The notes under the pieces: generated by a model
Told to the model about the DNA's origin: nothing
Databases searched by the model: none
Seen by the model: only the letters and a program-made list of their open reading frames with translations
In this document: positions 30,193 to 33,649 of the stretch, one piece after another
Position numbering within the stretch: position 1 is the stretch's first letter
Layout: each line of letters begins with the position of its first letter
Assembly: GCA_035623825.1 (NCBI GenBank)
Contig: DASPSR010000048.1
Coordinates: 1-64,000, forward strand
Source of the DNA: Nitrospirota bacterium
Lineage (GTDB): Bacteria > Nitrospirota > UBA9217
Length of the DNA: 64,000 nt
Direction: 5' to 3'
Program-made: the position numbers and the translations under genes

Positions 30193-30420
30193 TTAAAGAA
30201 TCCTCGTTGCAATGGATCGAGTAACGGTAAGTTCCTTTACCTTCTGGCCGAGCTGTTCTTCCATGACCTGCTGCTGCTCTTCACTGAGACGGAGACGGAA
30301 GACCCTGAGTTTATTCAATGACCGCTTCGTGAGATAGATTTCGCGAAGCTCAAAACCGATCTGCTTCTTGATATCTGCAGTCTGCTGCGGAGTGAGCGTT
30401 AGTTTAACGTTCTCATCCAT
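30193..30420 (-). CDS. Small hypothetical protein with an internal duplication (75 aa)
   Basis: GGAGG RBS and own promoter; two similar ~28-aa modules. Confidence 0.7.
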   Translation of the reverse strand: MDENVKLTLTPQQTADIKKQIGFELREIYLTKRSLNKLRVFRLRLSEEQQQVMEEQLGQKVKELTVTRSIATRIL

Positions 30421-30444
30421 TGAACGGACCCTCCATAAATTTTT

Positions 30445-30473
30445 ATTATAGGCCCTTTCTTATGGAAATTCAA
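30445..30473 (-). promoter_or_regulatory. sigma70 promoter of the 75-aa gene
   Basis: TTGAAT-17-TATAAT. Confidence 0.7.
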
Positions 30474-30502
30474 GATATTTCTACAAAGAGAAATCAGAGA
30501 AA

Positions 30503-30748
30503 TCATTGTTCCGTTCTGATTACTATGACTTTTTCCACCCAGGGGAATTCTCCGGTTAATTTCTCCTCCAGGCCCTGAACCAGGGCTATCCGAGTTACAT
30601 GTCAGCGCCAGCAGAATCCGGTAGGTGCAATCTTGACGGTTCCTCCGTCAACTCCCGCGAACTGGATATCGCCGCCCCGGCCTTGGTATTGCCGCGACAG
30701 GATACCAACCATCGCTTTAATCTGTTCGATATCGTTTTCTTTACTCAA
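30503..30748 (-). CDS. NifU/Nfu C-terminal-domain selenoprotein with CxxU motif (81 aa), not in the ORF track
   Basis: GAGGAGG RBS, 5 nt, then TTG. Translation: MSKENDIEQIKAMVGILSRQYQGRGGDIQFAGVDGGTVKIAPTGFCWR-U(TGA 30602-30604)-HVTRIALVQGLEEKLTGEFPWVEKVIVIRTEQ. This matches the Nfu pattern GGD...G.CxxC...GIE..L....P.V..V on both sides of the TGA. Confidence 0.85.
30565..30601 (-). promoter_or_regulatory. Putative SECIS element of the Nfu-like gene
   Basis: After UGA: CAUGUAAC-UCGG-AUA-GCCCUG-[GUU]-CAGGGC-CUGG. Perfect 6-bp upper stem, G-first loop about 21 nt after UGA. Confidence 0.7.
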
Positions 30749-30805
30749 ACGATCCTCCTCGAGATTGTACGACGTTGAGAGTGAAACGCTCAGATTGAAT
30801 TGTCT

Positions 30806-32494
30806 TCACTCTTCCATTACCAGTTTCTTCGCCATTCTCTCGACCGCCTCTTCAATCTTCACCTTTTCCACCAGTCCGGTCTTCCGCTCTTTCAATTCAA
30901 CAAACCCTTCTTTAAGGTTCTTCTCACCGATAATTATGCGGTGCGGGATGCCGATGAGATCGGCGTCTTTGAACTTTACTCCTGCCCGTTCATCACGATC
31001 GTCCATCAGGACCTCGAACCCTTTTTCCTCCAGTGACGTGTACATATCCTCGGCAATGTCCATGGACTTAACGTCCTTGATGTTTACTGGCACGATCAGA
31101 ATCTGATATGGAGCGATCGACCGGGGCCAGATGATTCCATTCTCGTCGTTCCCTTGTTCGATGGCCGCGGCCGCTATCCTGGCGGGCCCGATTCCGTAAC
31201 TTCCCATGATAATCGGCTTTTCCAGGCCGTTCTCGTCGAGATAGTTCGCCCTGAGCGGAACCGAATACTTGGTCCCCAGTTTGAAGATGTTCCCGATCTC
31301 GATCACCCGTTCGATGCGGATCGGCTTTCCGCACTGAACGCAGGAGTCGCCAGCAGCGGCAGTGTGAATGTCAGTGAACTCCGCCTCAAAGTCCCTTCCC
31401 GGCTGCACGCCCTTGACGTGGTATCCCTCTTTGTTTGAGCCGGCGACGTACAGTCCTTGTGTAAGCGATGAATCAGCGATCTTTCTGATCTTGTGAACCA
31501 TAGGGCCGATAAAACCAGCCGGTACGCCAAGGATATCCTTCACTTCTTCCTTTTGCGCAGGCCGGTGCGACCCGATGATCTTCGCAAGCTTCTTTTCGTG
31601 CAGGGTCTGGTCCCCGCGCACCAGAGCGAGAACCGGCCCCTTTTCGCCCATCATGAGGATGGATTTTATGAGGAGGTCAGGCGTCAGTTTCAGGAAGCGG
31701 GAGACCTCTTCGATCGTCCGCTTTTCCGGTGTGGCGACTTCCTCATACTTCCAAATGGGGAATTTCGGTGTCTTCGGCACGGACACTGCAAGCTCCACGT
31801 TCGCCGCATATCCGCAGGCGTCGCAGAGCGCAACCTCGTCCTCGCCAGCCGGCGAAGGCGCCATATACTCGTGCGCCATTGAGCCTCCCATCATGCCCGT
31901 GTCGCTCTGGACCACATAGAACTTGATGCCGCACCGGCTGTAGATCTTGTTATACGCCTCGAGGTGGAGCTGATAGGACCTGTCGAGCCCTCCTTCGTCG
32001 CGGTCAAAGCTGTAGGAATCCTCCATGATGAATTCGCGAGTCCGCAGCACACCACTCTTGGGCCGCGCCTCATCCCTGAGCTTTGTCTGGATCTGGTACC
32101 AAATCTGCGGCAGGTCTCTGTATGAGCGGATATCGTGGGCAGCAAGCCACGTCATAGTCTCCTCATGCGTCATGGCCAGACACATATCGCGGCCGCTGCG
32201 GTCTTTCATGCGGAACATCTCGTCTCCAATGGCGTCCCAACGCCCGGTCTGCTGCCAGACCTCTGCCGGGTTCAGGACGGGCATGGCCACTTCCTGGCCG
32301 CCAATGGCGTTCATCTCTTCCCGGATTATCTGATTGATCTTCGCCATCACGCGTTGACCGAGCGGCAGATAAATGTAGAGGCCCGCTGCGAGCTGACGAA
32401 CATAGCCGGCGCGCACCATGAGCTTGTGCGAAACTGCCTCGGCATCAGCGGGCGCTTCCTTCAGCGTCGGGATGAAAAGATGGGAATAACGCAT
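30806..32494 (-). CDS. proS: Proline--tRNA ligase (bacterial type, with INS editing domain)
   Basis: SHKLMVRAG, THEE, RDEARP, IEIGNIFKLGTKYS, MGSYGIG. Confidence 0.97.
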   Translation of the reverse strand: MRYSHLFIPTLKEAPADAEAVSHKLMVRAGYVRQLAAGLYIYLPLGQRVMAKINQIIREEMNAIGGQEVAMPVLNPAEVWQQTGRWDAIGDEMFRMKDRSGRDMCLAMTHEETMTWLAAHDIRSYRDLPQIWYQIQTKLRDEARPKSGVLRTREFIMEDSYSFDRDEGGLDRSYQLHLEAYNKIYSRCGIKFYVVQSDTGMMGGSMAHEYMAPSPAGEDEVALCDACGYAANVELAVSVPKTPKFPIWKYEEVATPEKRTIEEVSRFLKLTPDLLIKSILMMGEKGPVLALVRGDQTLHEKKLAKIIGSHRPAQKEEVKDILGVPAGFIGPMVHKIRKIADSSLTQGLYVAGSNKEGYHVKGVQPGRDFEAEFTDIHTAAAGDSCVQCGKPIRIERVIEIGNIFKLGTKYSVPLRANYLDENGLEKPIIMGSYGIGPARIAAAAIEQGNDENGIIWPRSIAPYQILIVPVNIKDVKSMDIAEDMYTSLEEKGFEVLMDDRDERAGVKFKDADLIGIPHRIIIGEKNLKEGFVELKERKTGLVEKVKIEEAVERMAKKLVMEE

Positions 32495-32563: not shown

Positions 32564-33649
32564 CTATTTCCCGTCTTCGGATGACTGCTTCCTTACCATT
32601 TCTTCCACTTCGTTCACCAGCGCATCAGCGAGTTCGGCTTCGGTCAGTTTCTTGACGATACCACCGTGCTTGAACAGCAGGCCGACGCCTCTGCCGCCGG
32701 CGATGCCGGCATCGGCCTCACGCGCCTCTCCAGGGCCGTTCACCACGCAGCCCATGACCGCGACCGTGAGCGGCTCCTTGATGTGAGCCAGTCTCTTCTC
32801 AACTTCCTGGGCCAGACCGATGATGTCGATCTCTGTCCTGCCGCAGGTGGGACAGGAGATGATGGTCACGCCGCGCTGGCGGATCCTGAGCGCCTTCAGG
32901 ATTTCATAGGCGACCCGTACTTCCTCAACGGGGTCGGCGGTGAGCGAGACGCGCATGGTATCTCCGATGCCCTCGGCGAGCAGGAGGCCTAGGCCTACGC
33001 TCGACTTGATCGTACCGGAAAATATGGTTCCCGCTTCAGAGATGCCGATGTGGAGCGGATAGTCGGATTTTTCCGAGAACAGCCGATAAGATGCGACCGT
33101 CGTGAGAACATCCGAGGCTTTGAGCGAAACTTTGAGGTCTGTGAAATTCAAATCTTCCAGAATGTGGATGTGCCCGAAGGCGCTCTCGACGAGCGCCTCG
33201 GCCGTAGGATGCTGGTACTTTTCGAGCAGAGGCTTTTCGAGAGAGCCCGCGTTGACGCCGATGCGAATCGGAATGCTACGATCTTTGCATGCACGGACGA
33301 CCTCGGCAACTTTTCTCTTTCCCCCGATGTTACCGGGATTGATCCGAAGGCCATCCACACCCTGTTTCACTGCCTCGAGCGCGAGACGGTAATCGAAATG
33401 GATATCTGCAATGAGAGGAACCCGCGTCCCCCTTCTGATTTCACCCAGCATTTTCGCCGCGTCCATATCAGGCACAGCGAGCCTCACCACCTCGCACCCC
33501 GCCTGTTCAAGATGGCCGATCTGGTCGAGCGTCTTCACGACATCGCGGGTGTCTGTATTGCACATGGACTGGATTACGATGGGCGCTCCACCGCCGATTT
33601 TCACTGTGCCGATGGTAATCTGCCTGGTTGTTTTACGGATAATACTCAT
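32564..33649 (-). CDS. ispG: HMBPP synthase IspG
   Basis: QSMCNT, ADIHF, RINPGN, SCPTCGR, MGCVVNGPGE. Confidence 0.97.
   Translation of the reverse strand: MSIIRKTTRQITIGTVKIGGGAPIVIQSMCNTDTRDVVKTLDQIGHLEQAGCEVVRLAVPDMDAAKMLGEIRRGTRVPLIADIHFDYRLALEAVKQGVDGLRINPGNIGGKRKVAEVVRACKDRSIPIRIGVNAGSLEKPLLEKYQHPTAEALVESAFGHIHILEDLNFTDLKVSLKASDVLTTVASYRLFSEKSDYPLHIGISEAGTIFSGTIKSSVGLGLLLAEGIGDTMRVSLTADPVEEVRVAYEILKALRIRQRGVTIISCPTCGRTEIDIIGLAQEVEKRLAHIKEPLTVAVMGCVVNGPGEAREADAGIAGGRGVGLLFKHGGIVKKLTEAELADALVNEVEEMVRKQSSEDGK

Follow-up and report, generated by a model that had tools for sequence, protein, structure and literature searches.

Nfu proteins act late, as carriers from which client enzymes receive [4Fe-4S] clusters, and a single pair of cysteines, the CxxC motif, constitutes their whole active site; ligation of a bridging iron-sulfur (Fe-S) cluster is the only well-established role of that motif. 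Among prokaryotic selenoproteins, Table 1 of PMC13188914 lists a HesB-like protein as experimentally verified and also contains predicted 2Fe-2S-binding members. Here we describe a gene, U-Nfu, in which an in-frame TGA occupies the second of the two cysteine positions of an Nfu domain. It lies on the minus strand of a 64,000-nucleotide stretch of DNA (the window: positions 1 to 64,000 of contig DASPSR010000048.1, assembly GCA_035623825.1) from a bacterium of the phylum Nitrospirota. Positions 30748-30503 (-) of the window are very probably a real gene for an 81-residue selenoprotein consisting of an Nfu/NifU C-terminal domain, with selenocysteine (Sec, U) at residue 49.

The gene is made up of the following elements, the ribosome-binding site, start codon and terminal stop being read directly from the sequence:

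30503..30748, minus strand: U-Nfu gene, with a TTG start, 81 codons including Sec at codon 49, and a TGA stop.
30754..30760, minus strand: ribosome-binding site GAGGAGG, 5 nt upstream of the TTG start.
30746..30748, minus strand: TTG start codon.
30611..30613, minus strand: codon of Cys46, the first residue of C-W-R-U; TGC in 15/15 orthologs, and aligned with the first Cys of the Nfu CxxC in 2z51, 1xhj and 1veh.
30602..30604, minus strand: in-frame TGA, codon 49, read as selenocysteine, in the context GFCWR-U-HVTR.
30572..30586, minus strand: hairpin GCCCUG/GUU/CAGGGC, resembling a selenocysteine insertion sequence (SECIS), with arms at 30586-30581 and 30577-30572 and the loop at 30580-30578; it begins 15 nt past the TGA.
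30506..30601, minus strand: coding part after the TGA, HVTRIALVQGLEEKLTGEFPWVEKVIVIRTEQ, corresponding to helix 2 and the last strand of the Nfu fold.
30503..30505, minus strand: terminal stop codon TGA.

The original prediction had named the strong GAGGAGG site, the TTG start, the TGA at the second Cys position and a GCCCUG/CAGGGC hairpin with a G-first loop just downstream, and all four are present, at 30760-30754, 30748-30746, codon 49 and 30586-30572 (loop GUU), respectively. Its remark that both halves of the gene fall below 60 residues agrees with the count of 48 codons before the TGA and 32 sense codons after it; the list of open reading frames (ORFs) for the window holds only the 48-residue N-terminal piece (30602..30748). 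In the orthologs, GGAGG-like sites precede starts that lie 46-50 codons upstream of the TGA. Three other public runs (X5, X6 and X8), which may stem from the same campaign as the source sample, have contigs that cover the TGA of the window's gene without differences.

When scored or modeled, the read-through product carries C in place of U. The Pfam model NifU (PF01106) matches it with 41.2 bits (curated cut-off 27) over residues 22-75 and thus spans residue 49, a match across the TGA of the kind that the original prediction had proposed to look for after noticing Nfu-like residues on both sides of it. The same model gives U-Nfu 33.5 bits in a six-frame search of the genome with TGA read through; NCBIfam holds no dedicated model and returns only weak NifU/NfuA matches far under their cut-offs. 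A profile built from 15 orthologs matches the solved Nfu domains 2z51, 1xhj, 1veh, 2m5o and 2jnv, and the alignment sets 'GfcWrc' on 'GaCgsC', so that Cys46 corresponds to the first and residue 49 to the second Cys of the cluster-ligating CxxC. The AlphaFold2 model of the 72-residue core, computed from the ortholog alignment, has a mean pLDDT (predicted local distance difference test) of 85.9 and comprises the elements H2-17, E22-29, E32-38, H42-62 and E68-71, which is an alpha-beta-beta-alpha-beta order; the best Foldseek matches of this model are 2z51 and 2m5o (both TMq 0.77), followed by 1veh and 2jnv, with a probability of 1.00. The C46-W-R-U49-H motif is located at the start of the long helix 2 (H42-62) in the model. 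The canonical CxxC is not kept there: the first Cys is present, and every member has a TGA (Sec) in place of the second, yielding a CxxU variant.

The TGA is conserved wherever the gene is found. In a six-frame search of 61 genomes, the window's own and 60 relatives, an ortholog match with exactly one TGA occurs in 16, all of the window's GTDB family, and 15 of these matches extend across query residues 1-81; all 16 close orthologs carry the motif G-[FY]-C-W-[RQ]-U-H-x-T-R. The copy in genome G031 is split over two frames; the adjoining orf75 and proS genes likewise align in fragments, which may reflect frameshift errors in the record and not pseudogenes. Across 401 sampled Nitrospirota genomes there are 35 matches at E<=1e-11, distributed over the GTDB families f1 (23/63, plus the window's own genome), f13 (3/5) and f24 (8/14), and each has exactly one TGA (35/35). 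A scan of named genome records, with one genome per species, found 18 real loci, all with the TGA and all from records titled as Nitrospirota, Nitrospirae, Nitrospiria or Nitrospiraceae metagenome-assembled genomes; these loci were recovered with an ortholog alignment as the query, a single-protein query having found no relative in the genome contigs. Three matches outside the phylum (Prevotella, Psychrobacter) were rejected as spurious, their frames being full of stops, and the motif spelled with Cys produced no true gene in the one-genome-per-species scan.

Protein collections mirror this pattern in truncated form. In a collection of 5.8 billion proteins, 13/13 relatives are 46-55 residues long and end in ...G-F-C-W-R. 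When 1.84 billion representatives were searched exhaustively with HMMER, N-terminal fragments end at profile position 43-44, covering about 60% of the profile (43/72 positions) with scores of at most 79.2 bits, and C-terminal fragments begin at position 46; the best full-length match of the Cys type reaches 43.5 bits, and full-length proteins appear only from there down. Homologs with Cys at the Sec column do exist, and they are canonical Nfu proteins: 61 of the 63 full-length matches examined carry G.CxxC, most commonly as CAGCPMS and CGSCPMS, which bears out the earlier claim that CWRU diverges from the usual CxGC. No Cys-containing member of the U-Nfu clade was found in the 401 Nitrospirota genomes, the protein libraries or the metagenome loci.

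The original prediction had proposed to test related genomes for conservation of the TGA and of what follows it, and both are conserved. The orthologs retain H-x-T-R-[IVM]-A-L-V...F-P-W-V after the TGA, and pairwise differences at codon positions 1/2/3 of this part amount to 0.263/0.119/0.437 in clade 1, to which the window's gene belongs, and to 0.248/0.137/0.455 in a second clade described below; the corresponding values upstream of the TGA are 0.262/0.235/0.483 and 0.226/0.145/0.547. The sequence after the TGA is evolving as coding sequence, with the codon-position order 3>1>2 as upstream, and only if the UGA is decoded can the conserved second half of the protein be made.

The second, more distant clade came to light through stubs in the representative library that end in ...G[YH]C[WYRH]R. 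When metagenomes were searched with these stubs, 32 loci emerged. In 29 of them the TGA holds the same position and precedes H-x-T-R-[MI]-D-L-V...P-W-V; of the other three, one (L136) is without a TGA in the frame of the N-terminal half, one is cut at the end of the locus, and one is an ordinary Cys-type Nfu. The clade comprises metagenome loci in the series L113-L143 and genomes of families f13 and f24; its proteins are 42-51% identical to the window's U-Nfu and share the motif G[YH]C[WYH][RS]-U-H-x-T-R-[MI]-D-L-V. A tree of 99 Nfu domains places the 35 Sec-type rows in one group (SH-aLRT 99), whose stem measures 1.35 substitutions per site; the tree was computed from 74 alignment columns with U treated as a gap, and its inner branching is poorly resolved. 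A distant NifU-like match with one in-frame TGA is found in another Nitrospirota family (G055:C26:59648-59836 (+); 24% identity, E 4e-6).

Downstream of the TGA, all 42 distinct sequences of both clades contain a hairpin of 6-10 paired bases that starts 15-18 nt past the TGA and has a loop of GUU, GUG, GUC, GGUC, GGUCG, GGUCA or GGUCAG. When folding is computed for 24-nt segments along these sequences, the mean minimum free energy is lowest for those that start 12-15 nt past the TGA (-9.3 and -9.4 kcal/mol); these are also the only segments in which all 42 sequences fold (weakest -4.8 and -4.7), the weakest value elsewhere being -1.3 or higher. A second local folding minimum lies in the 24 nt before the TGA (about 30605-30628, minus strand; mean -8.2 kcal/mol over the 42 sequences) and is not universal, its weakest value being -0.3. 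For the window's copy, the 45 nt past the TGA fold at -13.3 kcal/mol, compared to -8.45 +/- 2.41 in 2000 synonymous-codon draws from the genome's own codon usage, 2.75% of which are as low. RNAalifold predicts the same six pairs for clade 1, with 96.9% of 96 cells paired. The closing pair of clade 1 is A-U in eight cases, G-C in six, G-U in one and A-C in one, the latter being the window's own copy; the covariation score was reached by 1 of 500 column shuffles, a control that does not correct for relatedness, so that it lends support without amounting to a probability.

Synonymous variation is suppressed only within the stem: Ile+5 is ATA in 9/9 cases, Ala+6 GCC in 14/15, Leu+7 CTG in 15/15 and Gly+10 GGC in 13/14, while Leu+11 and Leu+15, just as invariant as residues, are encoded by four and five different codons; genome-wide, CTG accounts for 28% of Leu codons and ATA for 17% of Ile codons. 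The stem residues of clade 2 are different (M-D-L-V-R-[AS]-I), yet the hairpin is found at the same place, with A-U replacing the C-G of clade 1. Textbook rules for SECIS spacing and loops served for comparison, as did genes of the same genome: the SECIS hairpins of its selD and of two fdhA-like genes likewise lie a few codons past the UGA and have G and U in the apical loop, which is GGUCU after the two fdhA-like UGAs and contains GGUC after that of selD, most U-Nfu orthologs having GGUC(G/A) or GUC. The window's own copy of U-Nfu departs from these: its loop is GUU (or GGUUC), and its closing pair is an A-C mismatch, the orthologs having A-U or G-C at that position. By its placement and shape, the hairpin appears to behave like a bacterial SECIS element.

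The course of expression that these elements suggest is as follows. Translation would start at the TTG behind the strong ribosome-binding site and reach the UGA at codon 49, where the hairpin 15 nt further on (6 bp, G/U loop) would act as a bacterial SECIS and recruit SelB with Sec-tRNA(Sec); selenocysteine would be inserted, and translation would proceed for 32 more codons to the second TGA. The product would adopt the Nfu fold and present C46-W-R-U49-H where the CxxC of canonical Nfu proteins ligates an Fe-S cluster bridging two protomers, and the softer, more nucleophilic selenolate would alter the lability or redox tolerance of that cluster. The window's genome encodes a canonical Cys-type Nfu elsewhere (CGSCP motif, 104.6 bits), and U-Nfu would work beside this protein, not instead of it. 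SelB-dependent insertion of Sec, dimerisation, cluster binding and cluster transfer are all expectations drawn from the sequence.

A Sec-containing Nfu gene whose product acts as an Fe-S carrier is the best overall explanation, to which we give about an even chance. A carrier is favored because cluster ligation is the only established role of the Nfu motif, because both ligand positions are kept, and because Fe-S-related selenoproteins have precedents. Within this reading, we infer, with slightly less than even confidence, a specialised Nfu-type carrier in which Cys46 and Sec49 of each of two subunits together hold the bridging cluster. More tentative still is the proposal that U-Nfu is the first Nfu-type carrier with a selenolate-ligated bridging cluster (Cys2Sec2), an assembly or repair factor tuned by selenium that three families of anaerobic Nitrospirota have retained as an obligate selenoprotein, with no Cys counterpart.

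Several observations weigh against the carrier, or against the insertion of Sec that it presupposes. Expression, read-through and Sec insertion are predictions from the DNA sequence. An Rfam scan of positions 30300-30900 (E<=10) returned no SECIS family; GlsR14, HOTTIP_2 and IRES_Bag1, which it did return, were rejected as chance matches. Neither selA nor selB nor tRNA-Sec was found in the 89.65%-complete assembly of the window's genome, and the relative G009 (96% complete, with an ortholog) has tRNA-Sec while neither selA nor selB was found in it. No isc, suf, nif or sel genes lie beside U-Nfu in either clade. The motif has an aromatic residue and Arg between C and U and an invariant His, Thr and Arg after U, where canonical Nfu proteins have small residues and Pro, and the long stem branch of the Sec-type group suggests a changed function. 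Finally, according to PMC13188914, most CxxU/UxxC selenoproteins are presumed to be redox proteins, and many uncharacterised selenoproteins with such a motif probably have a redox role.

With respect to the selenocysteine machinery, the original prediction had made the presence of selABCD a test of the gene, and only part of this set is in evidence in the window's genome. It has selD (375.7 bits; G000:C48:65582-66493 (+)), itself with a single in-frame TGA (GAG[U]ACK), as well as one fdhA (1394 bits) and two fdhA-like genes (C39:37092-40241 (+), C22:13498-14232 (-) and C60:4807-5547 (+)), each of which has a single TGA, within R-[ILV]-[U]-H; selA, selB and tRNA-Sec are the missing part, which relatives with the ortholog possess. 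The assembly consists of 67 contigs, and ARAGORN identifies only 39 tRNA genes in it, none for Ile or Phe, so that its tRNA set is visibly incomplete. EF-Tu-like matches occur at contig ends. Within the window's family, selA is present in 33/36 relatives, with selB adjoining it in those inspected; of the 15 relatives with a U-Nfu ortholog, 14 have selA (E<=1e-40) and 13 have selB above the cut-off, and tRNA-Sec exceeds the Rfam cut-off in 5/5 relatives tested, G009 included. The selA-selB-tRNA-Sec contig of G002, a genome of the same genus, has only two short flanking matches in the window's assembly, internal to C44 and C48. We infer that the lineage uses Sec and that selA, selB and tRNA-Sec lie in the unassembled tenth of the genome.

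Ranked second behind the Fe-S carrier is an explanation that retains the gene and its Sec but takes C-x-x-U for a redox centre rather than a cluster ligand; it is the main rival, though we hold it to be unlikely. The original prediction had raised both functions, an Fe-S carrier with a Sec ligand and a redox/selenium-transfer protein. Sec49 would attack, for instance, a disulfide, a peroxide or the persulfide or perselenide carried by a cysteine desulfurase, form a selenenylsulfide with Cys46 and be recycled by a thiol system, making the protein an oxidoreductase or a sulfur/selenium relay on an Nfu scaffold. The C-terminal domain of human NFU reportedly has thioredoxin-like persulfide-reductase activity. 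The position of the motif at the N-terminus of a helix in the predicted fold would suit this role, as would the probable redox function of other UxxC/CxxU selenoproteins (PMC13188914); the invariant His45, Thr47 and Arg48, together with Arg/Gln at x2, look catalytic when compared to CxGC-P, and a long stem branch next to a retained ordinary Nfu fits a new function. However, U is aligned exactly to the second ligand Cys, so that both positions required by the one well-established activity of the motif are kept, and no gene for a thioredoxin reductase, peroxidase or desulfurase is a conserved neighbour.

That the TGA is instead a true stop, leaving a 48-residue peptide, two separate peptides or a decaying Nfu pseudogene with a relic of similarity downstream, is very unlikely. 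In its favor, gene callers read the TGA as a stop, with 13 of 13 database entries ending in ...CWR, some C-terminal pieces have been called separately (P0029, P0030 and P0097), selA, selB and selC are missing from the window's assembly, many genomes of the same family lack the gene, and the G031 copy is split over two frames. Against this, the TGA occupies the same codon in 35/35 genomes of three families and also in a second clade with only 42-51% identity; the downstream frame remains open up to a comparable end point, with the 3>1>2 pattern of purifying selection; the second half has neither a ribosome-binding site nor a start context before it; and a conserved hairpin follows at SECIS distance. 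Half an Nfu fold, judging from the model, would not be stable.

Scarcely credible is the decoding of the UGA as something other than Sec, be it near-cognate read-through as Trp or Cys or a reassigned code: it can draw on the C that follows the TGA in every copy (CAY, His), a weak termination context, and on the tRNA-Sec not found in the window's assembly, but the site matches a Cys, the residue usually replaced by Sec, SelD and FdhA of the same genome have TGA at their textbook Sec sites, the hairpin is placed and shaped as in the selD/fdhA-type genes, with GGUC-type loops, and a reassigned code is rejected because TGA is the main stop codon of the genome (709/1561 long ORFs) and ends U-Nfu itself.

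In its genomic context, U-Nfu is situated between proS and a small conserved gene, orf75. The original prediction had placed it directly downstream of proS, which is indeed the gene immediately upstream:

30806..32494, minus strand: proS (prolyl-tRNA synthetase), directly upstream of U-Nfu, with the Pfam domains tRNA-synt_2b, tRNA_edit and HGTP_anticodon; context only.
30193..30420, minus strand: orf75, a conserved gene of 75 residues directly downstream of U-Nfu; context only, and found also where U-Nfu is absent.
32564-33649: ispG, the next gene upstream of proS.

The order ispG-proS-U-Nfu-orf75 is found in nearly all clade 1 loci, and a CNNM/CorC transporter gene and mdh lie downstream of orf75. 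With or without U-Nfu, orf75 is present in 35/36 members of the window's family, and in 0/24 genomes outside it; the spacing between proS and orf75 is 368-536 nt with U-Nfu and 89-355 nt without it. From this spacing, and from the presence of orf75 where U-Nfu is missing, it follows that U-Nfu is an optional insert at a fixed site. The orf75 product has no Pfam match and no Cys, shows an internal two-fold repeat by eye, and is 74-97% identical across relatives. A faint remnant of U-Nfu may persist in two genomes that lack the gene, where tblastn aligns its last 15 residues (L090 (G020), 442-486, E 0.046; L096 (G021), 1370-1417, E 0.017). The neighbourhood in clade 2 consists of a radical SAM gene, a divergently transcribed nitroreductase, U-Nfu and a SLOG/LOG-like gene. 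IspG and radical SAM enzymes are Fe-S enzymes; their neighbourhood to U-Nfu was judged too weak to count toward function.

A lineage that always writes the Nfu site as CxxU adds a further selenoprotein family, one that standard annotation cuts to a 48-residue stub. This bears on the annotation of Nitrospirota metagenome-assembled genomes from peat, soil and groundwater, in which U-Nfu is missed or truncated. With a size of 9 kDa, the protein would also offer a small, tractable system in which to study the effect of selenium on the binding, lability and oxygen tolerance of an Fe-S cluster, or else an Nfu scaffold turned redox catalyst. Table 1 of the 2026 inventory of prokaryotic selenoproteins (PMC13188914), with 119 families and subfamilies, has no NifU/Nfu or PF01106 entry; the terms 'NifU' and 'Nfu' are absent from the main texts of this paper, the BSepDB paper (PMC13326102) and the deep-Sep paper (PMC12013277), the supplementary tables of which could list it; and no description of a Sec-containing NifU/Nfu was found in the full-text literature, supplementary tables and NCBI protein records lying outside the scope of that search. 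As far as these searches reach, U-Nfu is a new Sec-containing form of a known protein family and constitutes a selenoprotein family not yet inventoried.

Of the selenoproteins in that inventory, the HesB-like one (TIGR01911; PMC13188914) resembles U-Nfu in being a small scaffold of the Fe-S-biogenesis type, like the A-type Fe-S carriers, with one Sec; compared by description only, it differs in belonging to an unrelated fold and family and in its motif, which is UxGP rather than CxxU. The SelW-like, AhpD-like, DUF1858 and GrdA entries in Table 1 of the same paper share with U-Nfu the CxxU motif with Sec in second place, the small single domain and a SECIS hairpin within the coding region; they are, however, without a NifU domain. 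That domain connects U-Nfu to the Nfu/NifU C-terminal domain proteins, among them Arabidopsis CnfU (2z51), the C-terminal domain of human NFU1 (2m5o), Staphylococcus epidermidis SE0630 (1xhj) and mouse HIRIP5 (1veh), with which it is the same by hidden Markov model, profile and predicted fold. Like many bacterial Nfu proteins, it is small and stands alone, with the first ligand Cys kept and the second ligand position occupied. Where canonical Nfu proteins have G-A-C-x-G-C-P-x-[SA], however, U-Nfu has G-[FYH]-C-[WYH]-[RQS]-U-H-x-T-R, the second Cys being Sec in every member found; and the Sec forms constitute a separate clade on a long branch, coexisting in the genome with an ordinary Cys-type Nfu.

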